A stretch of DNA of 64,000 bases from Alphaproteobacteria bacterium (GTDB taxonomy: Bacteria; Pseudomonadota; Alphaproteobacteria; Rhodobacterales; Rhodobacteraceae), in NCBI GenBank assembly GCA_030429105.1, contig JAUIDE010000002.1, positions 7,896-71,895 on the forward strand, given 5' to 3'. Under the pieces are notes generated by a model that made no database searches, was not told the origin of the DNA, and saw nothing but the letters and a program-made list of their open reading frames with translations. Below, in pieces: positions 43,875 through 63,282 of this stretch. Position numbers and translations under genes: made by a program. The stretch's first letter is position 1. The number at the start of each line of letters is the position of its first letter.

Positions 43875-45437
43875 TCACCCCAGCGCGGCGATCACCGCGT
43901 CCGTCTTCGTCACCAGCGCCACGTTCTGCATCGCATAGTCGATGGAGGCGCGGTGCCAGTCCGCGTTCATCGTGGAGCAGGCGTCCTCCGGGATCACCAT
44001 GACATAACCCTTGTCGGCGCCGGTGCGGGCCGTGTGCTCGATGCTCATGTTGGTCCAGGCGCCCGTCTCGATGATGATGTCCCGCCCCTCGGCCTTCAGA
44101 ACCGTCTCAAGCGTCGAGCCCTCCCAGGCGGACATGCGCATCTTCTCGACCACATGGTCGCCCTCGACCGGCTCCAGCCCCGGCGCCGGCGCGGCGCCCC
44201 ATGTCCCGCGGACGAGGGCGTTCGCCTCGTAGGCGCCTTCGAAAAGGGGGCAGTTGAGCGTCAATCCCTTCGCCCCCGGCGGCACGATGAAATGGACATG
44301 GATCACCGGCACGCCCCGCGCCCGGCAATGGGCGGCGAGGCGGGCCGCGTTCTCCACCGAGCGCTGCGCGCGGGCGTGCTCCGGCGCGCCCGAGGAGGCG
44401 AAGGCGCCGCCCTCCATCACCACGTCGTTCTGCATGTCCTGGATGACGAGGGCGCAGCGCGACGGGTCGAGCCGCAGGTCGCCGTCAGCCGCCGGCGCCG
44501 CGGGCGCGGAACCGGCGGCGGGGCGGGCGCGCATGAAGGGCTCGTTCCGCGGCCCGATCTTCACGTCCACCGCATAGACGGAGGTGGAGGCGGCGACGAA
44601 GAGCGTCCGCCAGTCCTCCCCGCCCCAGTGGAGATTGGCGGGATGTTCGGGGATCGAAACCTTCCCGATATGCCGCCCGTCCGGCGCATAGACCCAGAGT
44701 CCGCCCGGCCCGGTGACCCAGATGTTCCCTTCCGCATCGCATTTCATCCCGTCCGGCACGCCGGATTTCAGGCTGTCGCGGATGCCGGAGGCGAAGACGC
44801 GGCCGTTCTTCAGCCTTCCCCCGTCCACCTCGAAGACGCGGATGTTCGCCTGCTCCGTGTCGTTCACGTAGAGCTTCGACTCGTCGGGGCAGAAGCAGAG
44901 CCCGTTGGGCTGGGTGAACATGTAGCGGTCCACGACCAGCTCCGGCTCCGCCCCCGGGCGCGCATTCGGCGGGATGCGGAAGACGCCCTGCCAGCCGAGC
45001 TGCCGCGGCCGCTCCACCCCGTAATGCGGCATCCGCCCGTACCAGGGGTCGGTGAACCAGATCGAGCCGTCCGACTTCACGACGATGTCGTTCGGGGAGT
45101 TCAGCTCCCGCCCCTCGAAATGGCTCGCCAGCACCTCCCGCGCCCCGTCGGGCCGGAAGCGGGCGACGCTGGACGTGGCGTGTTCGCAAACGATGAGGTT
45201 GAGCGCCGCGTCATAGGTCATCCCGTTGCCCTTGTTGGAGGGCTTCAGGACTTCGCGGACGCCGTGCCGGTCCCACCGCCGACGCACATCCGCCGGCATG
45301 TCGGAGAAGAGCAGGTAATGCTCCGCCGGGTGCCAGATCGGCCCCTCGGTGAAGGTGAAGCCCGTGCCGATCTGGCGGACGGGCGCATGCTCGTCGATCA
45401 GCCGGCGAAAGGCCGGGTCCAGCGCGTCATGGGCCAT
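43875..45437 (-). CDS. Fusion protein: SMP-30/gluconolactonase/LRE-like beta-propeller (N) plus isochorismatase-like hydrolase (C)
   Basis: N-terminus: FTEGPIWHPAEHYLLFSDMP and repeated propeller blades. Ala/Pro linker. C-terminus: LVIQDMQNDV...EKMRMSAW...ETGAWTNMSIEHTARTG...VIPEDA. ATG 45435-37 lies behind AAGGAGG. Confidence 0.75.
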   Translation of the reverse strand: MAHDALDPAFRRLIDEHAPVRQIGTGFTFTEGPIWHPAEHYLLFSDMPADVRRRWDRHGVREVLKPSNKGNGMTYDAALNLIVCEHATSSVARFRPDGAREVLASHFEGRELNSPNDIVVKSDGSIWFTDPWYGRMPHYGVERPRQLGWQGVFRIPPNARPGAEPELVVDRYMFTQPNGLCFCPDESKLYVNDTEQANIRVFEVDGGRLKNGRVFASGIRDSLKSGVPDGMKCDAEGNIWVTGPGGLWVYAPDGRHIGKVSIPEHPANLHWGGEDWRTLFVAASTSVYAVDVKIGPRNEPFMRARPAAGSAPAAPAADGDLRLDPSRCALVIQDMQNDVVMEGGAFASSGAPEHARAQRSVENAARLAAHCRARGVPVIHVHFIVPPGAKGLTLNCPLFEGAYEANALVRGTWGAAPAPGLEPVEGDHVVEKMRMSAWEGSTLETVLKAEGRDIIIETGAWTNMSIEHTARTGADKGYVMVIPEDACSTMNADWHRASIDYAMQNVALVTKTDAVIAALG

Positions 45438-45447
45438 CGGAGCCTCC

Positions 45448-46299
45448 TTACATCGGGAACCAGTCGCGCTTGCGCACGGTTTGCGTGACCGGGCCGGGGA
45501 CGGCCATGTCGAGCCGGCCGACAACCTGCCCGTGCTCGATCTTCGCCGGCTTGTCATGGACGGGGAGGAGGAACTTCGCGCCGGAATGCATCAGCTTCCC
45601 GATCTGCCCCTTCTCCTCCCGCTTCGAGACGCCGTGGTTGCCCGTCACCTGGAATTCCTCCGGCCCGAAGGAGTGGAAGGGTGCGATGATCTGGTCCTGG
45701 AAGTCATAGATCACGTCGCCGCAGATCGTCGCCCGGCCCTCGGCCGTGTCCACATGCACGTTCATCGAGCCTTCGGTATGCGCCCCCGCCATCTCCAGAT
45801 AGACGCCGGGGCAGAGCTCGATCGGCCCGGAAATCTCGAGGTCGACGAGCCGCAGCGCGCCGGGCGTGTGCAAACGCTCCACCAGATGGATGATGTCCGG
45901 CTTCGGATATTGCGGGTGCATCAGGCCGGAGACGGAATATTCCAGCTCCCGCCGGTTGATGAGCACGGTCGTGTTCATCGGGAACTGGTCGTCCTTCCCC
46001 GCATGGTCGATATGGAGATGGGTGTGCAGGATGTACCGCACATCCCCCATCTTCACGCCGTGGCGGGCGAGCTGGTTCTGGATCATGTTCTCGTGGAACT
46101 GGAGCCCGCGCATCCCCAGCGTCTCCATGATCGCGTTGTCGCGATAGCCGGTATCCACGACGATGGGCCACGGACCGCCGAGGATCAGGAAGCCATAGGT
46201 CGGCACCCGCCGCACCCGCCCGCACTCCCGCCCGAGGACGAGGAAGCTCGATTCGAGCTCGATGTCGCCGAAGTCCAGAATCTTGATCTCAAGGGCCAT
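45448..46299 (-). CDS. MBL-fold hydrolase, N-acyl-homoserine-lactonase-like
   Basis: HTHLHIDHAG (HxHxDH). 283 aa. ATG 46297-99 lies behind GGGAGGGG; the longer track ORF is Arg/Ser-rich non-homologous sequence. Confidence 0.8.
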   Translation of the reverse strand: MALEIKILDFGDIELESSFLVLGRECGRVRRVPTYGFLILGGPWPIVVDTGYRDNAIMETLGMRGLQFHENMIQNQLARHGVKMGDVRYILHTHLHIDHAGKDDQFPMNTTVLINRRELEYSVSGLMHPQYPKPDIIHLVERLHTPGALRLVDLEISGPIELCPGVYLEMAGAHTEGSMNVHVDTAEGRATICGDVIYDFQDQIIAPFHSFGPEEFQVTGNHGVSKREEKGQIGKLMHSGAKFLLPVHDKPAKIEHGQVVGRLDMAVPGPVTQTVRKRDWFPM

Positions 46300-46312
46300 G
46301 GTCCCCTCCCTG

Positions 46313-47194
46313 TCAGAGCCGGTAGACCCGGCATGCGGTGTTGTGGAAGATCGCCTCCTGCTCCGCCGTCGAGAGCCCGCCCGCGGCGGCCCGGTGGGCG
46401 GAAAGGAGGGAGGCGTAGTCGGTCCAGAGCTTCTCGATGGGGAAGTTGGAGCCGAAGAGGCAGCGGTCCGCGCCGAAAAGCGCGACCGTCTCCGAGACGA
46501 GCCAGCCGATATGGGCCGGGTCGTTCCGGTGGATGAAGGTGCCGAAGCCGGAGAGCTTGGCGAAGACGTTTGGCCGCTTCGCGAGCGCTGCCATGCCGGC
46601 GCGCCATTCGGCGCGGCCCGCCTCCGAAAGATCCTCCAGCATCCCCGCATGTTGCAGGATCAGCGTCGTCCGCGGCGCCGCTTCAGCGAGTTCGCACGCC
46701 CCCGCCATTTGCGGGGCGAAGACCTGAAGGTCGAAAGCCCAGCCGTAATCGGCCAGCCGGGCGACGTTTGTCTGCACATTCCGGTCAAGGCAGAGATCGG
46801 GCCGCGCGGCGAAGCGGTAGAGCGGGTTCTCGTGCCAGTGGAGTTGCTGCCGCACGCCCCGCATCCGCGGGTGGCGGGAAAGGCGGTCGAGCGCCGGCCG
46901 CGCGTCCTCCGCCGTCATGTCCGCGTAACCGACAATCCCGTGCGGCCACCCCGTCTCCCGCGCGAGGTTTTCGAGCCACAGGACCTCGTCCTCCGCCCGC
47001 TCCGCCGGCCAGTTCGCCTGCACATAGACGGATTTCTCGACGCCCGATCCTTCGAGATCGGCGAGATATTCCGCCATCGGATAATCCCGCCTTATCGGCT
47101 CGTAGGGGCCGAAGATGCGCGGCTGCATCGGCCCGCTCAGCCAGGGCAGGTCGGCCTGCCGCCAGACATGGAAATGGCTGTCGATCACCCTCAT
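46313..47194 (-). CDS. Amidohydrolase_2 family protein (lactonase/decarboxylase type TIM barrel)
   Basis: MRVIDSHFHVW start (HxH metal site). 293 aa. ATGA overlap with the upstream VWA gene. Confidence 0.8.
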   Translation of the reverse strand: MRVIDSHFHVWRQADLPWLSGPMQPRIFGPYEPIRRDYPMAEYLADLEGSGVEKSVYVQANWPAERAEDEVLWLENLARETGWPHGIVGYADMTAEDARPALDRLSRHPRMRGVRQQLHWHENPLYRFAARPDLCLDRNVQTNVARLADYGWAFDLQVFAPQMAGACELAEAAPRTTLILQHAGMLEDLSEAGRAEWRAGMAALAKRPNVFAKLSGFGTFIHRNDPAHIGWLVSETVALFGADRCLFGSNFPIEKLWTDYASLLSAHRAAAGGLSTAEQEAIFHNTACRVYRL

Positions 47195-48288: not shown

Positions 48289-48300
48289 GGGCGCCCCCAC

Positions 48301-48790
48301 CAGATAAGCGCGCGACAGCTTCCGTAAGCGCCCGGCAGATCAGACCCGCGGCTGATCTGCCCGCGGCCGCGTCGGGCGTATACGCCCGACCCCGGCGGCC
48401 GCGTTTCCGCGCCCGCCGCGGCGACCGCGGTCAGATCTACGACCGACGCGGCGGCTCGGCGCCCCTCGGCCTGCGGCTTGCGCCTTCGGCCGACGGCCTC
48501 GGCGTCTCTCCCCCGGAGAGACGCTGATCGAGGCCGGGGCGCAGACCTCCTGGCGTCGCCTTCGGCTACGAAACCGTCTCCCCGAGACCAGGTTCCGGCG
48601 ACGTCGAGGACAGGGAAGAGCGGAGGGGAGAAGGGCGCGGGGATCACCGGCTCGCAAAATCGACTCTTGAGATTTACCAATGAAATCAACGAAAAAACGC
48701 CCATAACCATGGTTATGAGCCCTCTGGAGCCCCGAAAGGCCCCCTCTGCGCGCCCCTCCCGAGCGGCTTCGACGAGGCGGAGAGCCCCCC
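48301..48790. other. 490-bp non-coding, palindrome-dense spacer inside the operon
   Basis: Hairpins or palindromes at 48334-48361, 48362-48403 (contains a 20-nt perfect palindrome), 48502-48524 and 48576-48588. Direct repeat CGCCTTCGGC at 48481 and 48557. AT-rich block 48654-48720 carries the 16-nt perfect palindrome CATAACCATGGTTATG. Confidence 0.6.
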
Positions 48791-49672: not shown

Positions 49673-50697
49673 CAGAGCCGCTTCTTCGGCTTCGCGCCGC
49701 CCTGCGCCCGAAGCCCGCGCAGCACCTTCTCCGGCGTCACCGGCAAGTCGTCGATCCTGACGCCGACCGCCTCATAGACCGCGTTGACGACCGCGGGGAG
49801 GACGGGGTTGGCGCACATCTCTCCCGGCCCCTTGCCGCCGAAAGGCCCATCCGCCGCCGGCCTCTCCAGCACGGAGATATGGTGCGGCGCGAGGTCCCCC
49901 ATGCCAGGCATGAGGTAATGGTTGAAGTCGACAGGCCCGTGATCCCGCGCCGGGTAATAGGGCTCCGTCGTCTCCCAGGCCGCATGGCTCATGCCCATCC
50001 AGGCGCCCCCGCGCAGCTGCTGCTCCACCAGCTTCGGGTTGAGCGCGCGGCCGACCTCATAGGCGGATTTCACGTCGAGGACGGAGACCTCGCCCGTCTC
50101 GTCGTCCACCTCCACCTCCACGATCATCGCCGCGTGGGCGAAGGTGGAGACGGGCGTCATCTCGCCTGTCTCCGCATCCACCTCGGACAGAGGGATGAGA
50201 AAGATGCCGCGCCCGGCGATGGTCCGCCCCTGCCGGAACTGCGCCGCCTGCGCCGCCGCCATGGTGGTGATCGAGCGGGAGGGCGCGCCCTTCACATGAA
50301 TGTTCCCCTTCCCGTCCGTCACGAGATCGGCGGCGTCCACCTCCAGCTCCTCCGCCGCCGCCTCCAGCATCACCGCCCGCGCCTCCTCCGCCGCGCGCAT
50401 CACGGCGTTGCCGACGCGGTGCGTGCCGCGGGAGGCGAAAGAGCCCATGTCATGCGGGCCGGTGTCGCTGTCCGCCGTGTCGACGTAAACGTCCTCGACC
50501 GGCACGCCGAGCGTCTCCGCCGCGATCTGGCGCGTGACGGACTTCATCCCCTGCCCGAGGTCGATGGCGGAGAGGGCGACAGTGAACTTCCCGTCCGGGT
50601 TGGAATGGACGAGCGCCTGGCTCGGGTCGCCCCCGAGATTCATGCCGATCGGATAATTGATCGCCGCGAAGCCGCGGCCCCGGTGCAGCGCCATCAC
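49672..50697 (-). CDS. Molybdopterin hydroxylase large subunit, C-terminal part (separate ORF)
   Basis: Begins at the conserved RGRGFA...GMN..G block and contains GQGMKSV and GSFASRGT, typical of the Moco-binding C-terminal domains of XDH/CoxL-family proteins. Its start overlaps the stop of the preceding ORF. Confidence 0.85.
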   Translation of the reverse strand: MMALHRGRGFAAINYPIGMNLGGDPSQALVHSNPDGKFTVALSAIDLGQGMKSVTRQIAAETLGVPVEDVYVDTADSDTGPHDMGSFASRGTHRVGNAVMRAAEEARAVMLEAAAEELEVDAADLVTDGKGNIHVKGAPSRSITTMAAAQAAQFRQGRTIAGRGIFLIPLSEVDAETGEMTPVSTFAHAAMIVEVEVDDETGEVSVLDVKSAYEVGRALNPKLVEQQLRGGAWMGMSHAAWETTEPYYPARDHGPVDFNHYLMPGMGDLAPHHISVLERPAADGPFGGKGPGEMCANPVLPAVVNAVYEAVGVRIDDLPVTPEKVLRGLRAQGGAKPKKRL

Positions 50698-52337
50698 CGC
50701 CTCCTGAAGCCGGAAAGGGAGGAGAAACGCAGCGCCCCCTTTCGCGCCGCATCCGGCGCTGGAGGCGGAGCCGGCGTCGGGGCGGCCTGCTGAGGCGCCG
50801 GCGTCGGAGCCGACTGATACTGAGGCGCCGCCGGCCTCGGCGGCGTCGGAACGGAAACGGAGGCCCCGCCGCCCTTCCGCGCATAGCCGCCCGTGTCGAT
50901 CCCCTCGACGCGCCCGTCCTGATCAGTGACGGTATGCGCCGGAAGCCGCCCCCGTTCGCCGCCGCCGCCCTTAGTCGACGCCGCCGCCGCCGCCTCGCCC
51001 GAGAGCCGCACACCCGCCTTCTCCGCCACCACCTGACAGCACTCGACAAGGGCGCAGTTCTTTGCCTCCCGCCGGTGCGCCTTCATGTCCCCGTCGCGAT
51101 AGGCGTTGAGGATGCGGAACTCGATCGGGTTCATCCCCACCGCCTCCGCCCCCTTGTCCATATGCGCCTCGATGGCGAAATCGACGCCGGTGATGCCGAA
51201 GCCCCGCATCGCCGTCGCCGGCGTCCGGTTGGTGTAGACGCAGTAGACGTTCGCCGAGACGTTGGGGATCGTGTAGGGCCCGGGCAGGTGCCCCACCCCC
51301 TTGATGATCGCGTAGGAGGAGAGGCGGGTATAGGCCCCGCTGTCGAAATAGCCGGTGAACTGGCGGGCTATGATCCGCCCGTCCTTCATCACCCCGTCCT
51401 TCAGATACCAGCGCTCCGCCCCCCGCGGGGCGCCGACCTGCATCTCCTCCTCCCGGTCCCACGCGAACTTGCAGGGCTTGCCGGTCAGCATCGCGCCGAG
51501 GATGGCGATGGGTTCGTGAATCGAATCCACCTTCCCCCCGAACCCGCCGCCGACCGTGCCGCCGACGAAATGCAGCCGGCTCGACGGCATGGAGAGCACC
51601 TTCGCCGCCGTGCCGAGAGAGAAGAAGAGCGCCTGCGTGCCCGTGTAGCAGACATAGCGGTCGTTCACCTCCGGCGCAGCGATAGCCCCGCAGGTCTCCA
51701 TCGGGGCCTGCTCGATGGGGGACATCTGGTAGCGCCCCTCGACGATGTGGTCGGCCTGCCGGAAGGCGGCCTCGACATCGCCGTAGCGGAGCTTCTGATG
51801 GTCGTATTTCCCGTGATAGACGAACTTGTTGCCGGGATAGACCTCGCAGACGGTCGGCGCGCCGGGGCGGATCGCCTCCTCCACGTCGAGGACATGGGGC
51901 AGCACGTCCCAGTCCACCCGCACCTTCTTCACCGCGGCGCGGGCGGCCGCCTCGCTCGTCGCGATCACGGCGGCGACCGGCTCGCCCTTGTAGGCGCATT
52001 TCGTCTCGGCGAGCAGCGGCTCGTCGTCGAGCCCGAAGTCGAGCAGCGAAAGGAGCGTGTTGAGATTCCGCGGCACATCCTTCCCGGTGAGGACGCGCAC
52101 AACGCCTTCCGACCGTTCCGCCTCGCTCACGTCGATACGGCGGATGCGGGCGTGATGATGGGGGGAGCGGGCGCAGCGGATGTGCAGCAGCCCCTCGAAC
52201 AGGTGATCGTCATAGAAGGGCGAGCGCCCGGTGACATGGCCGAGAATGTCCTGCCGGCGGGTCGGCTTGCCGATCTCGTTCAGGTTGTCGTCCCGCTCGT
52301 CGCGGAAGAATTCCTTGCGAAACTCGATCATGCTCAT
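50694..52337 (-). CDS. Molybdopterin hydroxylase large subunit, N-terminal part with a Pro/Ala-rich tail
   Basis: GKPTRRQDILGHVTGRSPFYDD start and an a/b-hammerhead plus first Moco domain (GGGFGGK). The last ~95 aa are low-complexity (PTPPRPAAPQYQSAPTPAPQQAAPTPAPPPAP). Confidence 0.85.
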   Translation of the reverse strand: MSMIEFRKEFFRDERDDNLNEIGKPTRRQDILGHVTGRSPFYDDHLFEGLLHIRCARSPHHHARIRRIDVSEAERSEGVVRVLTGKDVPRNLNTLLSLLDFGLDDEPLLAETKCAYKGEPVAAVIATSEAAARAAVKKVRVDWDVLPHVLDVEEAIRPGAPTVCEVYPGNKFVYHGKYDHQKLRYGDVEAAFRQADHIVEGRYQMSPIEQAPMETCGAIAAPEVNDRYVCYTGTQALFFSLGTAAKVLSMPSSRLHFVGGTVGGGFGGKVDSIHEPIAILGAMLTGKPCKFAWDREEEMQVGAPRGAERWYLKDGVMKDGRIIARQFTGYFDSGAYTRLSSYAIIKGVGHLPGPYTIPNVSANVYCVYTNRTPATAMRGFGITGVDFAIEAHMDKGAEAVGMNPIEFRILNAYRDGDMKAHRREAKNCALVECCQVVAEKAGVRLSGEAAAAASTKGGGGERGRLPAHTVTDQDGRVEGIDTGGYARKGGGASVSVPTPPRPAAPQYQSAPTPAPQQAAPTPAPPPAPDAARKGALRFSSLSGFRRR

Positions 52338-52810
52338 GCGCGCGCCCTTTCCCCGGCGGCGTCCAGCACCGCCTCGATGATCGGCTCATAGCCCGTGCAG
52401 CGGCAGAGATTGCCGGAAAGCGCCTCGATGACCTCCTCGCGCGTCGGGCGGGGGTTCCGGTCCAGCAGCGCCTTGGCGGAAACAAGCATCCCCGGCGTGC
52501 AGAAGCCGCATTGCGCGGCGAAGCGCTCCATGAACGCCTCCTGAAGCCGGTGGAGGACGGGCCCCGTCGCGAGGCCCGAAGCCGTCTCCACCTTCCGGCC
52601 CGCGGCGGCCTCCGCCAGCGTGAGGCAGGAGAGATGCGGCTCCCCGTCGATCAGCACGGTGCAGCCGCCGCAGCCGCCCTGCCCGCAGCCGTATTTCGGC
52701 GAAAGGTCGCCGACGGAGCGGCGGAGGAAGTCGAGCAGGTTCTGCCCCTCCTCCGCGAAGGCGGCGCTCTCCCGCCCGTTCAGCGTGAAGGTGACCGGTT
52801 TCTTCGCCAT
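52334..52810 (-). CDS. [2Fe-2S] small subunit of the molybdopterin hydroxylase
   Basis: Two cluster motifs, CGQGGCGGCTV and CGFCTPG...CRCTGY. 158 aa. Confidence 0.92.
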   Translation of the reverse strand: MAKKPVTFTLNGRESAAFAEEGQNLLDFLRRSVGDLSPKYGCGQGGCGGCTVLIDGEPHLSCLTLAEAAAGRKVETASGLATGPVLHRLQEAFMERFAAQCGFCTPGMLVSAKALLDRNPRPTREEVIEALSGNLCRCTGYEPIIEAVLDAAGERARA

Positions 52811-53610
52811 CAGCCGCGCTCCATCCGTTCGAGGAGGCGGCGGAGATGCACGCCCGCGACCTCCTTCCGGTACCAGGCGCTCGCCAGCGCGTCCGTCGGC
52901 GGGTCAAGCCCCTCCGCCGCCTGCGCGGCGGCGCGGGCGATGGTCGCGGCGTCGAGCGCCCCGCCTTCCAGCGCGCGCTCCGCCCCCTGCCCCCGCATCG
53001 GCGCAGGCCCCATCGCGCCCCAGGCGACGCGCGCGCCGCGGATGCGCCCGCCCTCGGCGGGGAGGAAGGCGGCGACGGAGAGGACGGAGACGCCCTTTGG
53101 CTTGACCCGCGAAACCTTCAGAAAGCTGAATTCCCGCCCGCTCCGGGGCCGGGGAATCTCTACGGCGGCGACGAGCGGTGGGCGCGCCCGCTCCCGCATC
53201 AGTTCCTCCACCGGGCGCGCGCCCCCCTGCCCGGCCAGAACCGCGCGCGCGCCGAGCGCGATGAGCGCGACGGCGAAATCGCCGTAGGGATGGGGCGCGA
53301 AGAGGTTGCCGCCCAGCGTCCCCATATTCCGCACCTGCGGCCCGCCGATCTGCCGCGCGACCGAGTGGAGGAAGGCGAGGTCCCGCTCCGCGAGTATCCG
53401 CGCCATAGTTACCCCGGCGCCGAGCCGGACCGTCTCCCCCTGCGCCCTGACTTCCTTCAGCGCCGGGTCGGCGGAGCGGACGAGGCGCTGCGGCCCCTCG
53501 CCCGCGTTGACGTCGCGCATCAACACAGTGCCGCCGCCGAAGAAGGCGGCGCCGGAGCCCATCGCGCGGGCCGCCTCGGCGAGCGTGGGGAAGGTTTCGA
53601 CCGTCGTCAT
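52810..53610 (-). CDS. FAD-binding medium subunit of the molybdopterin hydroxylase (CoxM-like)
   Basis: 266 aa with FFGGGTVLM, VRNMGTLGGNL and a C-terminal CO-dehydrogenase-flavoprotein-like domain. ATG 53608-10 overlaps the upstream stop (ATGA). Confidence 0.83.
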   Translation of the reverse strand: MTTVETFPTLAEAARAMGSGAAFFGGGTVLMRDVNAGEGPQRLVRSADPALKEVRAQGETVRLGAGVTMARILAERDLAFLHSVARQIGGPQVRNMGTLGGNLFAPHPYGDFAVALIALGARAVLAGQGGARPVEELMRERARPPLVAAVEIPRPRSGREFSFLKVSRVKPKGVSVLSVAAFLPAEGGRIRGARVAWGAMGPAPMRGQGAERALEGGALDAATIARAAAQAAEGLDPPTDALASAWYRKEVAGVHLRRLLERMERG

Positions 53611-54050
53611 GCCGCCCTCGCCAGATGCGCGCGGATCGCGTCGAACCCGCCCTGATAGATGTCTTCCGCCACCATCCGCCCAAGCTCCTGTTCCCGCCCT
53701 GCGGGCGTGTCGAACCGGCTCTCCCAGCGCCAGAAGGTCCGGTCCCCGTCCGTCACCGGCGCGAGGCGGACATGGGCGACGTAGTTGAGAAGCGGCACCG
53801 GCGTCTCGTGCAGGCAGTAGGAGAACGCCATGTCGGCGTCCGAGAGCGTCAGCAGCCGCTCCCGGAGTTCCGACCCGTCCCTGAGATGAAAGCGCCGGAC
53901 GCAGCCGATCCGGTCCGAAGGCTGGCCGCGCTCGATCTCGCTGTCTGCGACCGCCGGGTGCCATTCGTCATGGCCGTTGAAGTCCCGCAGCACGGCCCAG
54001 ACATCCTCTACCGGATGATCCAGCACCGTGCTCTTGACGACCTTCACCAT
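53607..54050 (-). CDS. SRPBCC (Bet v1-like) ligand-binding protein, paralog 2
   Basis: 147 aa. DVWAVLRDFNGHDEWHP...GCVRRFHL...VTDGDRTFWRWESRF. About half of positions are identical to the upstream paralog by eye. Confidence 0.72.
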   Translation of the reverse strand: MVKVVKSTVLDHPVEDVWAVLRDFNGHDEWHPAVADSEIERGQPSDRIGCVRRFHLRDGSELRERLLTLSDADMAFSYCLHETPVPLLNYVAHVRLAPVTDGDRTFWRWESRFDTPAGREQELGRMVAEDIYQGGFDAIRAHLARAA

Positions 54051-54054
54051 CGCC

Positions 54055-54492
54055 TCAGCCCGCCATCTGCCGCTTCAGCGCGTCGAACCCGGCCTGGAAG
54101 ACGTCGAGCCCGATGCCGCTGACGAGGCCCTCCGCCGCCTCCGCCGCGCAGTCGAATTCCGCCGTCCATTCCGCGAAGGTCCGGTCGCCATCCGTGACTG
54201 GCGTGAGGCGCAGCGTAGCTACGTAATCCGTCAGCGGCATCGGGCTTTCGAGGATCGAGTAGGTGCAGAAATAGTCGTAATCGGAGAGGCCGAGCAGCTT
54301 CTCGCGGATGCGGTCCCCGTTCTGGAGGTGGAAGTCGCGAATGCAGCCGACCCGGTCCGCCGGCTCGCCGTTCTCGATCCGGCTGTCGCGGATGCGCGGG
54401 TGCCAGCGGGGGAGGCCGTTGAAATCCCGCACCCGCTCCCAGACCTTCGCGGCGGGCGCGTCGATGACGGAGGAAATATAGACGCGCGGCAT
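54055..54492 (-). CDS. SRPBCC (Bet v1-like) ligand-binding protein, paralog 1
   Basis: 145 aa. KVWERVRDFNGLPRWHP...GCIRDFHL...VTDGDRTFAEWTAEF. Its ATG abuts the flotillin TAG. Confidence 0.72.
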   Translation of the reverse strand: MPRVYISSVIDAPAAKVWERVRDFNGLPRWHPRIRDSRIENGEPADRVGCIRDFHLQNGDRIREKLLGLSDYDYFCTYSILESPMPLTDYVATLRLTPVTDGDRTFAEWTAEFDCAAEAAEGLVSGIGLDVFQAGFDALKRQMAG

Positions 54493-57441
54493 CTACTTCT
54501 TCTCCCCTTCCGGCTTCCCGCCCTCGCCTTTCGGCGCCTTCTTCACGGCGTCCGAGATACGCTGCATGTCGGAGGCTTCGCGGATCAGCCCGCCCTGCTT
54601 CGTGAGATTCCCGCCCTCGATGCCGATATCGCTCAGGAGGCTGTCGATCAGCGGCGCCTGGACGCGATAGCGAAGCGCGGAGTTGATGACCTCGTCGGTC
54701 GGGCTCCCGTCCCGGCTCCCGCCGCCGCCCGTCACGCCGTCGAGCTGCATGATGCGGATGTCCTGGATCTTCTCCAGCGGCTTGACGCTCGCCGCGACGA
54801 TGCCCTCCACATGCTCGAGCAGCTTGCGGCGGAAGAGCGAGGAGCGGGCCGGGTCGGTCAGCACGTTCTCCGCCTCGTTGAGGAGCTTCTGCGCCTCGGC
54901 CTCGACCGCGCGGCGAACCGCTTCCGCCTCGGCGGCGATCTTGGCTTCCGAAGCCGCCTTCTCCGCCATCAGCACGTCGATCTTCTGGCGGCGGGAGGCC
55001 TGTTCCGTCTCCCGCACGGTCTTGACGCGTTCCTCCGCCTCGGCGGCGCGGGCGCGCGCCGCGTCCGCCTCGGCGCGGGCGGCGCTCTCCTCCAGCGACT
55101 TCTTGTAGAGCGCGACGGCCTTCTCCATCTGCGCCGTCTCGACCGTCTTCTCGCGTTCGACCTCGAGCCTGCGGCGCTCGGTCTGATGGGAGATGCGGAT
55201 TTCGTCGAGCCCGCGTTCGGAGGCGATGCGCGCACGCTCGATATCCTCCTGGCTCTCGATCTCGGCCTCGCGCAGCGCCTGGACGCGGGCGATCTCCAGC
55301 TGCTCGATGGAGCGGCGGCGTTCGAGCCGTGCGGCTTCGAGCGCGCGCTCGCGCTCCACATCCGCCGTCTCGACATCCTTCCGCGCGGCGATCTCGGCCT
55401 GCTTGACCTCCGCCTCGGCGGCGGCGGCCTTCGCCTTCTTGCCGGCCAGGGCGACGACGCGCTCCTGCTCCGCCGTCTCGACGACGCGCTTGCGCTCGAT
55501 CTCCGTCACCTCGCGGGTGCGCTGGCTGCCGATCCGGTCCTCCTCCAGCGCCAGCTCGGCGGCGATGCGCGCCTTCTCCACAGCCTCGCGGCGCCCGATC
55601 TCGGCGGCTTCGATCTCCTTCTCCCGGGCGATGGCGCGGGCGCGGACGGCCTCCTCCGCCGCGATCCGGTCGGCCTCCACAGCGCGGGTCTGCGCGATCT
55701 CGCGAAGCGCGGTGGCCTCGGCCGCGGCGATGCGCTTCGCGTCGAGCTCCAGCTTCTGGGCGATGCGCGCGGCCTCAACCGCCTCGTCTGCGGCGACGCG
55801 GGCCTCGTCCACCGCCTTGTTGCGCGCGATCTCCTCCGCGCGGGTCGCGCCGTCCGCCGCGATGCGCTCAGCAGCGAGCGCCTTCTCTCGCGCGATGCGG
55901 GCCGCCTCGGTCGCCTGCCCGGCGGCGATTTCCGCCGCCTCGATGGCCTGCTGCCGCTCGATTTCCAGCGCGCGGATGCGCCGGTCCTCCGCGATGCGCG
56001 TCTCGTTGACGACGGCGGCCTCCGCGATGCGGAGCCGCTCCGTCGCCTCGCGCGCTTCGATCTCGGCCTCGTCGAGCCCCTTCTGCCGGGCGATCTCCCG
56101 CCGGCGGATATCCTCCTCGCCGCGGATGCGCGTCTGGGCGAGGACGAGGGTCCGCGCCATGCGGGCCTTTTCGGTTTCCTCATTTGCGGCGATCTCGGCC
56201 TGCTCCACCGTCCGCTGACGCTCGATCTCCAGCGACTGCGTCTCACGGTCCTTCGCGATGCGCGCCTCGGCGACCGCCTTTTCCTGCGCGATCTGCGCGC
56301 GTTCCGTCGCCTCGCGGGCGGCGATGGCGGCCTCTTCGAGCAGCTTGCGGCGGGCGATCTCCTTCGCCTCCGTCTCCTGCTCGTTGAGGATCCGCGCCTC
56401 CCTCACCGCCCGCTCCTGCAGGATGCGGGCAGTCTCCGTCGCCTCGCGGGCCGCGATTTCCTCCGCCTCGTCGGCGCGGGCGCGGGCGATCTCGCGGGCG
56501 CGGACCTCGCGCTCGGAGGCGATGCGCGCCTCGGCGATGCCGCGCTCGTTCGCGATGCGCGCCTTCTCGATCGCCTCCCGCGCTGCGATCTGCGCGCTCT
56601 CGGCCTCCGTCTCCCGCTCAGCGCGCTCCCGCGCCAGCATGGCGCGCTGCTGCGCCCGGCGGAACTCGACCTCGCGCTCCTGTTCGAGCCGCGCCTCCTC
56701 GCTCTCGCGCTCGATGTCCAGCGCCTGCTTCTCCGCCTCGAGGTTGCGGGCGCGGATGAGGATGGAGGTTTCCTGCTCGATATCGTTGCGAAGCTTCCGC
56801 CGCGCCTCGATCTCCTTGATGATCGAGGTGAGACCCTCGGCGTCGAACCGGTTGGACGGGTTGAAGAATTCGAGCGCCGTCTGGTCGATGTCGAGGATCG
56901 CGACGGATTCGAGCTCCAGCCCGTTGCGGCTGAGATCCTCCTGCGCCGCCTCCTTCACCCGGGCGACATAGGAGCCGCGCTGCTCGTGCATCTCGCCCAT
57001 CGCCATCTCGGCGGCGACGGCGCGCATCGCGCTCTCGAACTTGCCGGCGAGAAGGGCGTGGAGGCTCTCCGGCTCAAGCGTCCGCCGCCCCAGCGTGGAG
57101 GCGGCCATCGAGACGGCGTCCTGCGCCGGGCGGACGCGGACATAGAACTCCGCCTCCACATCCACCCGCATCCGGTCCTTCGTGATGAGCGCCTCGCCCT
57201 TCGTGCGGCTCACCTTCAGCGGCAGGGTGTTCATGTTGACGGGCGTGTAGTCGTGGATGATCGGCCAGACGAAGGCGCCGCCGTCGATCACCACCTTCTC
57301 CCCGAGGAAGCCGGTGCGGACGAAGGCGATCTCCTTCGTCGAACGGCGGTAGAGCCATTGCATGACCCAGTAGACGATGGCGATGACGACCACCGCCACG
57401 ATGAGCCAGAGGATCAGCTGCCCTATGATCTGACCTGTCAT
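54493..57441 (-). CDS. Oversized flotillin/YqiK-like SPFH protein (982 aa)
   Basis: N-terminal TM helix, SPFH domain (AFVRTGFLGEKVVIDGGAFVWPIIH...), very long Glu/Ala/Arg coiled coil and a flotillin-type C-terminal region. AAGGGAGGA before the ATG. Confidence 0.85.
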   Translation of the reverse strand: MTGQIIGQLILWLIVAVVVIAIVYWVMQWLYRRSTKEIAFVRTGFLGEKVVIDGGAFVWPIIHDYTPVNMNTLPLKVSRTKGEALITKDRMRVDVEAEFYVRVRPAQDAVSMAASTLGRRTLEPESLHALLAGKFESAMRAVAAEMAMGEMHEQRGSYVARVKEAAQEDLSRNGLELESVAILDIDQTALEFFNPSNRFDAEGLTSIIKEIEARRKLRNDIEQETSILIRARNLEAEKQALDIERESEEARLEQEREVEFRRAQQRAMLARERAERETEAESAQIAAREAIEKARIANERGIAEARIASEREVRAREIARARADEAEEIAAREATETARILQERAVREARILNEQETEAKEIARRKLLEEAAIAAREATERAQIAQEKAVAEARIAKDRETQSLEIERQRTVEQAEIAANEETEKARMARTLVLAQTRIRGEEDIRRREIARQKGLDEAEIEAREATERLRIAEAAVVNETRIAEDRRIRALEIERQQAIEAAEIAAGQATEAARIAREKALAAERIAADGATRAEEIARNKAVDEARVAADEAVEAARIAQKLELDAKRIAAAEATALREIAQTRAVEADRIAAEEAVRARAIAREKEIEAAEIGRREAVEKARIAAELALEEDRIGSQRTREVTEIERKRVVETAEQERVVALAGKKAKAAAAEAEVKQAEIAARKDVETADVERERALEAARLERRRSIEQLEIARVQALREAEIESQEDIERARIASERGLDEIRISHQTERRRLEVEREKTVETAQMEKAVALYKKSLEESAARAEADAARARAAEAEERVKTVRETEQASRRQKIDVLMAEKAASEAKIAAEAEAVRRAVEAEAQKLLNEAENVLTDPARSSLFRRKLLEHVEGIVAASVKPLEKIQDIRIMQLDGVTGGGGSRDGSPTDEVINSALRYRVQAPLIDSLLSDIGIEGGNLTKQGGLIREASDMQRISDAVKKAPKGEGGKPEGEKK
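55528..56583 (-). repeat. Eight tandem 132-bp (44-codon) in-frame repeats inside the flotillin gene
   Basis: Repeat units start at residues 287, 331, 375, 419, 463, 507, 551 and 595 (AREA/ANEE/AGQA/ADEA/AEEA...). One codon register (res 331, nt 56451) was checked by hand. Confidence 0.75.
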
Positions 57442-57459
57442 GTCATCCTCCCTTTCGGC

Positions 57460-58284
57460 TTACCTGCCGATGCGCTTGAACGCGCGCGTCTGTTCGGTGA
57501 GCGCGGTTTCCGCCGGCAGCCGCTCCATGGAGGACGCGCCGTAGAACCCGTCGCAGCGTTTCGCGGCCTTCAGGACGAACTCCGCATCCGCCGGCATGGA
57601 GACCGGGCCGCCATGAACGAGGATCAGCGCGTCCGGCTTCACGGCCAGCGCCGCCGCCGCCCACTTGTCCACGAGGCCCGGGCAATCCTCCAGCTTCAGC
57701 GCCGTCTCGGCGCCGATGGAGCCGCCCGTGGTGAGCCCGAGATGGCAAACGATGATGTCGGCCCCTGCCCCCGCCATCGCCGCCGCCGACGCCTCGTCGA
57801 AGACGTAAGGTGTCGTCAGCATGTCCTTCCGGCCCGCCTCCGCGATCATCTCGACCTCGAGCGCGTAGCCCATCCCCGTCTCTTCGAGGTTGGCGCGGAA
57901 CGTGCCGTCGATCAGGCCGACCGTGGGGAAGTTCTGCACGCCGGAGAAGCCCGCCGCCTTCACCTCGTCGAGGAAGCGTGGCATCAGCCGGAACGGGTCG
58001 GTCGCGCAGACCCCGGCGAGAACCGGGGTATGCTTCACGACCGGCAGCACCTCCGAAGCCATCTCCATGACGATGGCGTTCGCGTCGCCATAGGGCATCA
58101 GTCCGGCCAGCGAGCCGCGCCCGGCCATGCGGTAGCGGCCGGAATTGTAGATGACGATGAGGTCGATCCCCCCCGCCTCCTCGCACTTCGCCGAAAGCCC
58201 TGTGCCGGCGCCGCCGCCGACGATGGGCTCCCCGCGCGCCTTCATGGCGTGGAGCCGTTCCAGAATGTCCTTGCGGGGGATCAT
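57460..58284 (-). CDS. PEP-hydrolase-like TIM-barrel protein (usual partner of UPF0261; C-terminal half of plant Tm-1)
   Basis: 274 aa. [33 protein letters not shown]...GVQNFPTVG family pattern. ATGA overlap with the upstream gene. Confidence 0.78.
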
Positions 58285-60441
58285 CGCCGCGCCTCTTTCT
58301 TCTTGGCCGGCCTGCCGCCATGCAGCTCGCGGAAGGCGGCGACGAGCGCCGCCGAGAAGGCCGGGTCGTTGATGTTGTGCGGCAGGCGGATCAGTCGCCG
58401 GTTCGCGCTCTGGCGCACTGTCGCCTCCAGCGCGGAGAAGAGCGCGGCGCGCGCCGCCGGATCGTGGAAATCCCGCCCCGGCGCGTCGAGGGCGGAGACG
58501 CCGCCCTCGGGCAGGAGGAACCGCACCGGCCCCTCCATCTCGTTCAGCCGCCCGCCGATCCATCGCCCCATCGCCGCGCATTCCTCCGCCGTGGTGCGCA
58601 TCAGCGTCACCTGCGGGTTGTGGACATGGAGCTTCCGCCCCCGATAGCGCTCCGGCACGGTCTCCATTGCGCCGAAATTCACCATGTCGAGCGCGCCGAC
58701 CGAACCGACATAGGGGAGCCGCCGGCGGATGACGGCGCCGAACCGGTCCTCCGTCGCGGGGAAGACGCCGCTCATCATCATGTCGGCGACTTCCGTCGTC
58801 GTCGCATCGATCACGCCGAGGAGGCGGCCATTGTCGGCGAGGCTCTCCATCGCCCGGCCGCCGACGCCGGTGGCGTGGAAGACGAGGCAATCGTAATCCT
58901 CGCCGAGGGCCGATACGACCTGCTGCACGCAGGGCGTCGTCACGCCGAACATCGTCAGGCCGATGGCTGGTTTTCGCGGCGGGGCCGGCCGCGCCGCCCT
59001 TCGCGCGCGGACCATGCCGACCATCGCCTGCGCGGCGTTTCCAAGCACCTCCTCCGTGATTGCGTTGAGGCCCTGCATGTCCGCCACCGAATGCATCATC
59101 ATGATATCGGACGCGCCGACATATTGCCCGACCTCGCCGCTCGCCACGGTGGAGACGAGAAGCTTCGGCGCGCCGAACGGCAGCGCGCGCATCGCCGGGG
59201 CCGCGAGCGCAGCGGCGCCGGAGCCGCCGGCGGAGACGATCCCCGCGATCCCCTCCTGCCGGGCGATCCAGCGCTCGAAGGCCAGCGCCATCGCCGTCAC
59301 CGCCGCGCCCCGGTCCCCGGTGAAGACGCCGGCAGCGCCGCGCGGGTGGAAGGCTGCGACCTGGTGCGCCGGAATGTCCGCGCCTGAATGCGCGCCGGTT
59401 GTGGAAAGATCGACGAGCCGGACGGGCAGCCCGGCCGCCAGGATCAGGTCGCGCAGATGGCGGAGTTCCGGCCCCTTGGTGTCGAGCGTGCCCGCGACGA
59501 GAACCACCTGCGCCCCCGGCGCGGCGAGCGGGCGGATCTCCGCGGAGGGCGCGGCGAGCGGCCCTGTCGTCACGACCCGCGCCTCCCGCTCCAGCCGGTG
59601 GACGGGGACGGGCGCGCTCCAGCGCGTCGGCGCCGTCGGGTTGGCGTTATAGATCTTCACCGCGGCAGGGGCGGAGGGAGCCGCCGCCTTCGCCGCGCCC
59701 TGCGCCGGCTCCGGCGTCTCATCATGACCGTGCCGGCCGACGCCGAGCAGGCGCTGCTGCAATTCCCGGTCCGCCGCCAGCGCCGCGGCGGGCGCGATGC
59801 GGTTGATCCGGCCGTTGACCATGATCGCAACCTCGGAGGCCACGCCGCAGGCGACGCCGATGTTCTGCTCGATCACCAGCACGTCAATCTCGCCCTCGTC
59901 CCCGAGGCGGAGCAGCATCTCCTCCACCTGCGCGACAATGACGGGGGCGAGCCCTTCGGTCGGCTCGTCCATCACGAGGAGCTTCGGGTTGGAGAGGAGC
60001 GCGCGGGAGATGGCGAGCATCTGCTGCTCCCCGCCCGAAAGCTGCGCGCCGCCGTTCCCCTTCCGCTCCGCGAGGCGCGGGAATGTCGAATAGACCCGCT
60101 CGATGGACCAGGCGCCGCCCGGCTTCGCGACCATCCGCAGATGCTCGTCCACCGTGAGCGAACGCCAGAGCCGCCGCCCCTGCGGCACATAGCCGACGCC
60201 CATCCGCGCGATCTCCGCCGCGCTCCGCCCCGTCAGCGGCTGGCCGCGGAAGCTGATCGTCCCGGAAGCGGCGGGGACGAGGCCCATGATCGCCTTGCAG
60301 AGCGTCGTCTTGCCCATCCCGTTCCGCCCGACGACGGAGAGGACGCCGGATTTCAGCGTCAGATCGACGCCCTGCAAGGCATGGCTCGCGCCGTAGAAGA
60401 CGTTGAGTCCCTTGATCTCGAGGCCGGGCGGGCCGACGCGC

Positions 60442-60449: not shown

Positions 60450-61217
<768 letters not shown>

Positions 61218-61221
<4 letters not shown>

Positions 61222-62261: not shown

Positions 62262-62268
62262 CGCGCCC

Positions 62269-63282
62269 TCACCGCCTGTCGCCGAGCAGGCCCTGCGGCC
62301 GGAAGGCCAGCACCAGCGCCATGATGAGGAAGGTGAAGACGACCGAATAGGTCGGCGCATAGACGAGGCCGAGCTGCTCCGAGAGCCCGATCACCAGCGC
62401 GCCGATGGCGGCCCCCGGGATCGAGCCCATCCCGCCCACGATAACGACGACAAGCGATGCGAGGAGGAAGCGCGTATCCTCCCCCGGGGAAAGAGACTGG
62501 AACGTGCCGCCCACGATCCCGCCCATCCCCGCGAGCCCGGCGCCGAAGCCGAAGACGGCGAGGAAGACGTACTGGATGCGGACGCCGGAGGCCGCCAGCA
62601 TCTCCCGGTCGTCCACCCCGGCGCGGATCAGCATGCCGAGCCGGGTGCGGTTCAGCACCAGCCACATCGCGACGCCCATGACGATGGCGGCGACGAGGAT
62701 CGCGATGCGGACGGCGGGATACCGCAGATAGACGATCTCCCCGTCGCTCTTGATCGAGGAGATGACGGGCAGCGTCGTCGGGCCGGAGAGCCATTCCGGC
62801 GAAAGGATGGTGTAGGACTGCCCGCCCCAGATCCAGAGCATCAGGTCGGCGAGGACGACGGAGATTCCGATCGTCACCAGCGTCTGGCGCAGGTCCTCCC
62901 CCTCCATCCGGCGGAAGACCTGATTCTGCATCAGGAGGCCGAGCGCCGCGACGAGCACGAAGACGACGGGAAAGGCGAGAAGCCAGGAGCCCGTCGAATC
63001 CGATATCTCGAAGCCGACATAGCCGCCGAGGAGATAAAGCGAGCCGTGCGCGAGATTCACGTTGCGCATCAGCCCGAAGATCAGCGTGAAGCCGGCGGCG
63101 ACGAGGAAATAGAGTGCGCCGAGCGTGATCCCGCCGAAAACGGCGTTGAGGAAGATCCGCTTCCTGCCGATTGCATCCTCAAGCCCGTCCGGCCATGGCG
63201 CGAAAACGAGCCAGAGCAGCGCCGCCACGACAATGGCGATCACCAGGGTCCAGATCGGATGTCGCGAAGCGAAGCGCTGCAT
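62269..63282 (-). CDS. LivH-type ABC permease
   Basis: 337 aa, polytopic, with the typical NLAHGSLYLLGGY block. Confidence 0.88.
   Translation of the reverse strand: MQRFASRHPIWTLVIAIVVAALLWLVFAPWPDGLEDAIGRKRIFLNAVFGGITLGALYFLVAAGFTLIFGLMRNVNLAHGSLYLLGGYVGFEISDSTGSWLLAFPVVFVLVAALGLLMQNQVFRRMEGEDLRQTLVTIGISVVLADLMLWIWGGQSYTILSPEWLSGPTTLPVISSIKSDGEIVYLRYPAVRIAILVAAIVMGVAMWLVLNRTRLGMLIRAGVDDREMLAASGVRIQYVFLAVFGFGAGLAGMGGIVGGTFQSLSPGEDTRFLLASLVVVIVGGMGSIPGAAIGALVIGLSEQLGLVYAPTYSVVFTFLIMALVLAFRPQGLLGDRR

Follow-up and report, generated by a model that had tools for sequence, protein, structure and literature searches.

The question raised by positions 43875-63282 of a 64,000-nt stretch of contig JAUIDE010000002.1 (Alphaproteobacteria bacterium, Rhodobacteraceae; the whole stretch is called the window below) was whether its 17 minus-strand genes, which join an ATP-binding cassette (ABC) importer, an ABC ATPase fused to a Tm-1-like UPF0261 domain, a giant flotillin, a split molybdenum (Mo) hydroxylase and a series of hydrolases, belong to one system, and what such a system would do. 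The 17 genes are a co-inherited and strongly conserved unit, and with a probability of roughly 0.55 the cluster was read as one inducible, AraC-controlled island for the catabolism of a small carboxylic acid of (hetero)aromatic or heterocyclic type. An import, ring-hydroxylation and ring-opening module had been proposed in the initial annotation; domain content and modular distribution fit this proposal, which is kept as an inferred function.

Conservation was assessed with a species-representative scan (one genome per species) seeded with the N-terminal half of the Mo subunit, and relatives were found in 311 species. Synteny figures were taken by tblastn from the best 80 of these 311 relatives (71-97% identity), and a gene was counted as testable only in loci long enough to span its expected position. 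Across these loci all 17 genes are collinear and on one strand. Thirteen are never missing from a spanning locus (100%; 58-76 loci each; 71/71 for the MoxR gene), the Amidohydro_2 gene is present in 59/63 and the MBL gene in 62/63. Loci reaching livH and livM were too few (2/2 each); when these two genes are counted, 15 genes stand at 100%. The best 80 loci are all alphaproteobacterial, from Rhodobacterales, many Hyphomicrobiales, Acetobacterales and Geminicoccaceae, and identity across orders is 70-90%. Synteny thus reaches beyond one genome: dozens of species, belonging to four or more alphaproteobacterial orders, have the complete train in collinear form, and the co-occurrence supposed in the initial annotation was found by neighbourhood search.

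The unit reaches past the end of the window. In Pikeienuella, Tepidamorphus, Hoeflea, Jannaschia and another Paracoccaceae genome, the common order is a solute-binding protein (SBP, Peripla_BP_6), an iron-containing alcohol dehydrogenase (Fe-ADH), AraC, livH, livM, livG, livF::UPF0261 and the TIM barrel, followed by a flotillin of ~1000 amino acids (aa), two SRPBCC genes, the FAD and FeS subunits, the N- and C-terminal halves of the Mo subunit, MoxR and VWA; the Liv-type SBP, Fe-ADH and AraC genes precede livH in 5/5 genomes checked. The AraC-type regulator reported upstream of the train was confirmed by Pfam, with the addition that its open reading frame (ORF; 63406-63918+) is truncated where the window stops. 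Orthologues of the regulator have 278-279 aa, carry a cupin/AraC_binding N-domain and lie immediately 5' of livH (5/5 genomes checked). Names on record for the cluster members and for the nearest Mo-subunit relatives are all generic, and no description of the cluster was found in the searched literature, which is incomplete, so that an earlier description elsewhere is possible.

Domain calls for the 17 genes and the upstream AraC gene were confirmed by Pfam (Table 1). A base-by-base check placed ATGA junctions at 61218-61221, 58281-58284, 53607-53610, 52334-52337 and 47191-47194, a GTGA junction at 50694-50697, TAGATG at 54490-54495, and TGATG (1-nt overlap) at 52810 and 49672. In gene order the junction gaps are 7, -4, -8, -4, 18, 0, 4, -4, -1, -4, -4, -1, 490, -4, 13 and 10 nt; 15/16 junctions are of 18 nt or less, and the sole break is at 48301-48790. 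The train is translationally coupled. The gene count, overlaps and spacer given in the initial annotation were reproduced, with every listed junction exact to the base. No sigma-70-like promoter was found in the cluster by promoter scan, and an Rfam search of the whole window, including the spacer, gave no matches.

Table 1. Features of the gene train in transcriptional order, with positions in the window
Feature	Position	Strand	Domains and remarks
AraC-family regulator, C-terminal HTH part	63406..64000, runs off window end	-	Pfam HTH_18, HTH_AraC
livH-type permease, 337 aa	62269..63282	-	BPD_transp_2, 2.7e-33
livM-type permease, 347 aa	61218..62261	-	BPD_transp_2, 7.3e-30
livG-type ABC ATPase, 259 aa	60442..61221	-	ABC_tran, BCA_ABC_TP_C; ATGA overlap with livM
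LivF-type ABC ATPase (aa ~1-240)::putative Tm-1-like UPF0261 ATP-binding/kinase domain (aa ~314-712), 722 aa	58281..60449	-	ABC_tran, UPF0261, UPF0261_C
PEP-hydrolase-like TIM-barrel protein, 274 aa, UPF0261 partner	57460..58284	-	PF09370, 1.5e-128; ATGA overlap with fusion gene
Giant flotillin, 982 aa	54493..57441	-	Band_7 2e-17, Flot 2.2e-32
SRPBCC protein 1 (Polyketide_cyc2), 145 aa	54055..54492	-	PF10604, 1.4e-26
SRPBCC protein 2 (Polyketide_cyc2), 147 aa	53607..54050	-	PF10604, 1.5e-23; ATGA overlap with FAD subunit gene
FAD subunit of Mo hydroxylase, 266 aa	52810..53610	-	FAD_binding_5, CO_deh_flav_C
Two-[2Fe-2S] subunit, 158 aa, 8 Cys	52334..52810	-	Fer2, Fer2_2
Mo-cofactor subunit, N-terminal half, 547 aa	50694..52337	-	Ald_Xan_dh_C, MoCoBD_1
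Mo-cofactor subunit, C-terminal half, 341 aa	49672..50697	-	MoCoBD_2
MoxR-type AAA+ ATPase, 293 aa	48791..49672	-	AAA_5, AAA
Non-coding spacer, 490 nt	48301..48790	-	terminator-like hairpin then T-run
VWA_CoxE-type protein, 369 aa	47191..48300	-	PF05762, 3.9e-42
Amidohydro_2 hydrolase, 293 aa	46313..47194	-	PF04909, 3.3e-44
MBL-fold hydrolase, lactonase-like, 283 aa	45448..46299	-	Lactamase_B; HxHxDH intact
SMP30/gluconolactonase-like beta-propeller::isochorismatase-like hydrolase, 520 aa	43875..45437	-	SGL, Isochorismatase

The importer set is complete for the HAAT type, with two BPD_transp_2 permeases, two ATPases and the Peripla_BP_6 SBP (the last seen beyond the window in five other genomes). 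PDB relatives of the SBP include 4ey3 and 4evq, which we take to be benzoate-derivative binders of Rhodopseudomonas palustris. The ligands of Liv-type (COG0683) SBPs in R. palustris are benzoate-type acids, dicarboxylates and fatty acids, and not branched-chain amino acids (PMC3223731). The cluster shares its permease, ATPase and SBP set with the Liv/HAAT aromatic-acid importers of that species (HbaE-I, RPA0668; PMC3223731), from which it differs in that LivF carries a 480-aa kinase-like extension and in that the SBP gene does not adjoin the permease genes but lies upstream of the regulator gene.

The LivF::UPF0261 fusion has more than 100 full-length relatives of the same architecture (73-90% identity), a single high-scoring segment pair covers LivF and UPF0261 in 63/69 loci, and the protein is 97% identical to that of a Pikeienuella (Paracoccaceae) metagenome-assembled genome (MAG). 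The UPF0261 domain was matched in the PDB to tomato Tm-1 (best, 5.6e-93) and to MarK (9MPY, 2.6e-55). MarK (Saro_1862 of Novosphingobium aromaticivorans) is an ATP-dependent phenolic aromatic kinase in acetovanillone catabolism and was the first UPF0261 protein with demonstrated activity, reported in 2025, and Tm-1 acts through ATP-bridged protein binding (PMC12624787). The DTK ATP motif and the equivalents of MarK G195, H219 and H304 were aligned (GTLDTKG, mfGvtt, FHATG, HNPQ), and 66-67 orthologues keep both this motif and the Gly/His/His residues of the phenol site. On these residues the domain is a putative kinase. Shared with MarK are the two-domain UPF0261 fold, the DTK motif, the Gly/His/His phenolic-oxygen ligands and, on the side of MarK, a setting in aromatic catabolism; unlike MarK, the domain is fused here to an ABC ATPase and has a TIM-barrel partner, and no acvCDEF/biotin-carboxylase-type genes are present in the cluster. 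The initial annotation had stated that the UPF0261, PEP-hydrolase-like and flotillin genes have no known role in such routes. For UPF0261 this does not hold, as MarK is an aromatic kinase (PMC12624787).

The N and C domains of UPF0261 followed by a PF09370 TIM barrel, which is the Tm-1-like order, are present as ATGA-overlapping genes. Both parts are shared with tomato Tm-1, with the difference that the UPF0261 domain is tethered here to a transporter. The only PDB match of the TIM barrel is Mll9387 (2P10, 2e-115), a structure without assigned function. Homologues of SRPBCC protein 1 (48-57% identity) come after UPF0261-TIM pairs in Azospirillum and Bosea, and a homologue of SRPBCC protein 2 in Variovorax is fused to a Zn-dependent dehydrogenase.

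The flotillin consists of an N-terminal transmembrane helix (hydrophobic aa 5-23), an SPFH domain, about ten 44-residue repeats and a Flot C-terminal domain. The repeats have a 44-aa periodicity (4 x 11), are rich in Ala, Glu and Arg and fill the middle ~450 residues; they account for a strong AT skew at 54-58 kb and for a stop-free antisense ORF of 1539 codons (54028-58647, plus strand), which is taken to be an artefact of composition. Orthologues are 974-1129 aa long, and the Variovorax homologue, from a cluster without the large Mo enzyme, has 562 aa. The NCBIfam FloT model was not reached (33.5 bits, cut-off 700). In common with the bacterial flotillins FloT and FloA are the N-terminal anchor, the SPFH/Band_7 domain, the Ala/Glu-rich coiled coil and the Flot domain, whereas the protein is about twice the usual length, is set in a catabolic operon, abuts its neighbour by TAGATG and has no NfeD partner among the 17 genes (no NfeD domain by Pfam). 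In the cluster it may serve as a membrane scaffold.

All cofactor modules of an XDH/CoxSML-type Mo hydroxylase are present: Fer2/Fer2_2 (8 Cys), FAD_binding_5/CO_deh_flav_C and Ald_Xan_dh_C/MoCoBD_1/MoCoBD_2, with GGGFGGK and GxGE motifs in the sequence. Residues 22-441 of the Mo N-half align to NdhL 8-415 (best PDB match 3hrd_A, 1.4e-54) and residues 5-332 of the C-half to NdhM 3-328 (best PDB match 3hrd_B, 6.3e-47), and the subunit is split at the boundary of MoCoBD_1 and MoCoBD_2, the same point as in NdhL/NdhM. The second PDB match of both halves is the 4-hydroxybenzoyl-CoA reductase HcrA (5e-45). Hydrophobic leaders are missing from all enzyme proteins. The enzyme has four subunits, is of the split NdhFSLM type and is proposed to be cytoplasmic, and the MoxR and VWA proteins presumably mature its Mo centre, by analogy with such pairs elsewhere. 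An identity as 4-hydroxybenzoyl-CoA reductase was rejected: the FAD subunit has no Cys and therefore no 4Fe-4S insert, and the NCBIfam 4hydrxCoA_B model gave 58 bits against a cut-off of 404.

The N-half carries a C-terminal tail of ~110 aa (window 50694-51030) in three parts. It opens with a conserved block (GGGGERxRLPxxTATDxxGRVxGF..SYARKG), continues through a Pro/Ala-rich, variable linker (40-70 aa) and closes with an invariant C-terminal peptide (RFSS[LI]SG[FLY]R[RK]R, here RFSSLSGFRRR). Eubacterium barkeri NdhL (425 aa) and a Gaiellaceae homologue (461 aa) are too short for such a tail. The codons of the last Arg residues hold the ribosome-binding site (AGGAGG) of the gene that follows; this overlap accounts for only part of the conservation of the peptide, and the tail looks like a tethered docking peptide.

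Nicotinate is degraded through NicC/NicX-type oxygenases in aerobic routes, or through Hnr (6-hydroxynicotinate) reductase and an Amidohydro_1 enamidase in the fermentation of E. barkeri. That the cluster is an island for nicotinate (vitamin B3) or a close pyridine-carboxylate, with the Mo enzyme as nicotinate 6-hydroxylase and the isochorismatase domain as a NicF- or PncA-like amidase, was considered rather unlikely. It would account for NdhL/NdhM as the best match of both Mo halves and for the rare split that they share, for the presence of an isochorismatase-fold amidase, and for the second XDH-family enzyme beside the Gaiellaceae relative, as in sequential ring-hydroxylation pathways; the SBP family, moreover, binds benzoate-shaped acids (PMC3223731). 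The similarity is moderate, however (E about 1e-50), with a nearly equal score for 4-hydroxybenzoyl-CoA reductase; by Pfam, no NicC/NicX-type oxygenase, Hnr reductase or Amidohydro_1 enamidase is encoded among the 17 genes; and the best NCBIfam matches of the isochorismatase domain, which has Ser as nucleophile, are a generic hydrolase, BiuH and RutB, not PncA. In direct comparison with E. barkeri NdhFSLM (PDB 3HRD), the four subunits, FAD, the two-[2Fe-2S] protein and a Mo subunit split into ~50-kDa and ~37-kDa parts at the same point are shared, while the similarity is moderate, the N-half tail is additional, the host here is aerobic, and the Amidohydro_1 enamidase-type hydrolase and the reductase of the E. 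barkeri nicotinate-fermentation cluster were not found here by Pfam. Since the Mo enzyme shows neither a close relationship nor the pathway context, it was not filed as a nicotinate dehydrogenase. Nor does it cluster tightly with another enzyme of known substrate, which the initial annotation had named as an outcome that would speak against its proposal: NdhL/NdhM match only at 1.4e-54/6.3e-47, no equivalog cut-off is reached and the next kin are at 47% or less. In a library of 1.8 billion proteins the Mo C-half orthologues are 83-92% identical, followed after a gap by the nearest relatives outside the clade at 47% or less. Homarine catabolism, considered for marine hosts, was rejected, as the published hom operon is flavin-based and unrelated.

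In the cox clusters of Oligotropha carboxidovorans, CoxD (a MoxR ATPase), CoxE (VWA) and CoxG (SRPBCC) serve as accessories. A MoxR/VWA pair beside an XDH-family enzyme and SRPBCC genes directly upstream of the enzyme genes are found here too, and CO dehydrogenase (CODH) large subunits are among the PDB matches, so the cluster might be taken for a cox-type dehydrogenase of CO or another small molecule, with MoxR, VWA and SRPBCC as CoxD/E/G-like proteins and the flotillin as membrane anchor. We regard this as extremely improbable: by regex search the active-site loops AYxCSFR (form I) and AYRGAGR (form II) are absent from both Mo halves, on which ground an identity as CODH was rejected; the CODH matches are far weaker than those to NdhLM and HcrA; the SRPBCC proteins belong to Polyketide_cyc2, with no COXG match at E up to 0.001, and elsewhere stand with the UPF0261-TIM module; and an importer, an SBP and four hydrolases are out of place in CO oxidation.

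The hydrolases are, as judged from their sequences, only remotely related to characterised lactonases and amidases. The SGL domain was matched to 3e5z (2.7e-44; putative gluconolactonases) and the isochorismatase domain to 3kl2 (1.9e-24), the PDB ranking of the latter being uncharacterised members, then biuret hydrolase, RutB and CSHase. Amidohydro_2 is distant kin of L-fucono-1,5-lactonase (PDB 4dlf, 2.4e-15) with HxH kept, and the MBL protein gave weak NCBIfam matches to AiiA and 4-pyridoxolactonase. The Fe-ADH has 4-hydroxybutyrate dehydrogenase as its best NCBIfam match, below the cut-off; maleylacetate reductase was rejected for it, the PDB match being weak and 4-hydroxybutyrate dehydrogenase the best NCBIfam match. 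Oxygenase and CoA-ligase families are absent from the 17 genes by Pfam, which fits a hydrolytic route.

The cluster is built of two separable modules, one for import (importer, fusion, TIM barrel, flotillin and two SRPBCC proteins) and one enzymatic (Mo hydroxylase, MoxR/VWA, MBL, SMP30 and isochorismatase), and each was found apart in other genomes. On a 2.5-Mb replicon of Variovorax paradoxus VAI-C (deposited as a plasmid), livHM, an SBP, livG, livF::UPF0261, the TIM barrel, the flotillin of 562 aa and two SRPBCC genes are present without the Mo enzyme, and genes for a fumarylacetoacetate hydrolase (FAH) family protein, an alpha/beta-hydrolase and an Amidohydro_1 protein precede the transporter. 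The enzyme module was found in a Gaiellaceae cluster (the 47% relative of the Mo C-half), where isochorismatase and SGL are two genes side by side (60% identity; the same Ser variant in the isochorismatase), accompanied by XdhC, VWA, MoxR (53% identity), MBL (60%), FAD, FeS, Mo-N (no tail) and Mo-C, beside a second XDH-family enzyme; the importer, UPF0261, flotillin and SRPBCC genes are missing from it. It is the transporter/Tm-1-like module, and not the Mo enzyme, that the SRPBCC and flotillin genes accompany. In Thermomicrobium LivF and UPF0261 are encoded by two neighbouring genes, after which come the TIM barrel, genes like those of phenylphosphate synthase, FAH and an XDH-family enzyme that is not split, and in Azospirillum an unfused UPF0261-TIM-SRPBCC triad adjoins an XDH-family enzyme. 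On pMLa of Mesorhizobium (M. japonicum) the UPF0261-TIM pair has a cupin and a Gfo/Idh/MocA oxidoreductase as neighbours, and no SRPBCC match was obtained there. A 43% relative stands beside a HAAT transporter and an Fe-ADH, and a 42% relative from Xanthobacteraceae has different neighbours.

If the cluster is one catabolic island, it might work as follows; import, hydroxylation and ring opening are read from family membership and context, and the UPF0261 step is inferred. The Liv/HAAT-type importer, with the SBP encoded just outside the window, would take up the compound. The UPF0261 domain on LivF would act at the membrane on a hydroxyl of the incoming compound or of an intermediate, most likely by ATP-dependent phosphorylation, assisted by the TIM barrel and the two small SRPBCC ligand-binding proteins, and the giant flotillin would hold this assembly in a membrane patch; kinase action on LivF and scaffolding by the flotillin are the more speculative parts. 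The four-subunit FAD/[2Fe-2S]/Mo enzyme, matured by MoxR and VWA, would hydroxylate a ring carbon beside the heteroatom using water, giving a lactam or lactone tautomer as product. MBL, SMP30::isochorismatase and Amidohydro_2 would open the ring and remove an amide, the Fe-ADH (4-hydroxybutyrate-dehydrogenase-like) would oxidise the resulting hydroxy acid, and the variable aldehyde dehydrogenase (ALDH), short-chain dehydrogenase/reductase (SDR) and FAH proteins would contribute where present.

A bolder form of this scheme, which we consider improbable, is a membrane-attached catabolic compartment. The flotillin would form an SPFH-type cage on the cytoplasmic face, its space enlarged by the repeats; the importer would pass substrate directly to the kinase domain of its own ATPase (group translocation); the SRPBCC proteins would shuttle it onward, and the Mo hydroxylase would be docked through RFSSLSGFRRR on its Pro/Ala tether.

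Several observations weigh against the reading as one catabolic island. No enzyme of the cluster reaches an NCBIfam equivalog or curated cut-off, and the hydrolases add to their remoteness two conserved departures: the nucleophile position of the isochorismatase domain (43875-44480), where Asp and Lys are kept, is Ser and not Cys (TNMSIEHT) in all orthologues, and Amidohydro_2 has GSNFP in place of the lactonase GSDWP (Asn for the strand-8 Asp), again in all orthologues. The UPF0261 domain resembles Tm-1 more closely than MarK; the ketone-binding His348 of MarK is Leu here, and Phe283 and Ile285 are also not conserved. A terminator-like hairpin splits the train in this genome, and the Variovorax import module, lacking a Mo enzyme, means that the two modules need not in principle share one substrate. 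In Bosea the unfused UPF0261-TIM-SRPBCC triad adjoins sugar ABC transporters, ThuA and Gfo/Idh/MocA oxidoreductases, and triads or pairs are often divergent from proteins of ~580 aa or from a sigma-54 activator, which bear the same PEP-hydrolase-like TIM-barrel domain. Triads in sugar contexts and regulators headed by a TIM domain make a sensing role possible, and hint at a signalling link for the UPF0261-TIM family.

This last point leads to the strongest alternative, a real though clearly less probable one, in which the UPF0261 domain, TIM barrel and SRPBCC proteins would sense or regulate in a manner coupled to transport (like the MalK regulatory domain), either gating the importer or signalling to regulators, with the chemistry left to the remaining genes. 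UPF0261-TIM(-SRPBCC) sets in catabolic contexts as unrelated as those of Bosea and Azospirillum, the adjoining regulators, the fusion to an ATPase, which is a typical place for regulatory domains, and the ATP-bridged protein binding of Tm-1 (PMC12624787) all speak for it. Against it, the only UPF0261 protein studied biochemically acts as a catalytic kinase (PMC12624787) whose ATP- and phenol-site residues are kept here, and the TIM barrel stands alone and is highly conserved (74-85% across orders), as would be expected of an enzyme.

The modular distribution also bears on a view in which importer/flotillin, Mo enzyme and hydrolases are independent modules for different substrates, brought together only by shared horizontal transfer. 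Each module occurs alone (import in Variovorax, enzymes in Gaiellaceae), copies of the cluster are carried by a plasmid of Yoonia and by a Shinella replicon of 1.9 Mb that was deposited as a plasmid, identities of 70-90% across orders suggest transfer, and the terminator-like site lies within the train in this genome. Order, strand and the 4-nt/1-nt overlaps, however, are kept in every locus across the boundary of the SRPBCC2 and FAD genes (ATGA); the spacer is derived and specific to a lineage; the 43% relative likewise combines a HAAT transporter, an Fe-ADH and the split hydroxylase; and an XDH-family enzyme accompanies UPF0261-TIM in Thermomicrobium and Azospirillum as well. We therefore consider independent modules improbable.

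Read as a catabolic island, the cluster is in part familiar: a Mo-hydroxylase catabolic cluster was rated as known, the ABC ATPase::Tm-1-like fusion and the operon-embedded giant flotillin as unprecedented. Gene-for-gene conservation in marine, freshwater and soil alphaproteobacteria, together with the lack of specific names for the components, points to a probably widespread, unrecognised route for a common environmental compound. Tm-1-like UPF0261/TIM proteins range from bacteria to plants with only one kinase activity reported, and the cluster offers a genetic handle on them; if the kinase-like domain on the ABC ATPase is catalytic, it would be a new coupling of import to chemical trapping, and the compartment, if real, would give the Tm-1-like UPF0261/TIM family its physiological role. 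For the question of bacterial flotillin clients, the flotillin is here hard-wired in an operon with a defined importer and enzyme. Cultured carriers exist, among them Hoeflea halophila KCTC 23107, Tateyamaria pelophila DSM 17270, Jannaschia pohangensis DSM 19073, Maliponia aquimaris CECT 8898, Ahrensia marina ac1 and Shinella zoogloeoides Teo12, which makes the cluster a tractable target.

The spacer between the moxR and VWA genes holds the only minus-strand terminator-like hairpin of the cluster (48720-48699, then a T-run), with a perfect 16-bp palindrome, CATAACCATGGTTATG, inside it at 48702-48717, and several further GC-rich hairpins. It is missing from most orthologous loci, the MoxR and VWA genes overlapping or abutting in ~55/71, and is common only to the Pikeienuella MAG (84% nucleotide identity); it is unique in the window. 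A repeat element was rejected, as no second copy was found in the window or in other loci except the Pikeienuella orthologue. The spacer might act as a terminator or attenuator inside the train, or as a regulator site gained in this lineage.

The G+C content of the window is ~70%, and its first 20 kb are chromosomal housekeeping genes (peptide-chain release factor, ispG, rodZ, gyrA, hisA/F). Directly downstream of the train, 32300-43550 holds a sulfur-oxidation region with a SoxA-like cytochrome, a SoxB-like 5'-nucleotidase/metallophosphatase with a twin-arginine translocation (TAT) signal, a SoxC-like Mo oxidoreductase, a di-haem cytochrome c, flavocytochrome c sulfide dehydrogenase, an MBL protein and YeeE/DUF6691 sulfur-transport proteins; the cluster boundary was placed at 43875 because these sulfur-transport, sox and flavocytochrome genes come next.

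On the plasmid of Yoonia sp. SS1-5 the livG, TIM-barrel and FeS-subunit genes each match as two frame-shifted pieces (16260-16990, 19158-19963 and 25322-25776) and are absent from the plasmid gene table, being either pseudogenes or the result of sequencing indels. In the Pikeienuella MAG (locus 1-3564, approximately just beyond the window end), the SBP gene is preceded on the same strand by genes for a shikimate dehydrogenase, a dehydroshikimate-dehydratase-like protein and the alpha and beta subunits of protocatechuate 3,4-dioxygenase. These neighbours may be coincidental, because other genera differ upstream (RraA-like, SDR, FAH, ALDH); among the loci the variable neighbours are an ALDH (alpha-ketoglutarate-semialdehyde-dehydrogenase-like), SDRs and an FAH-family hydrolase.

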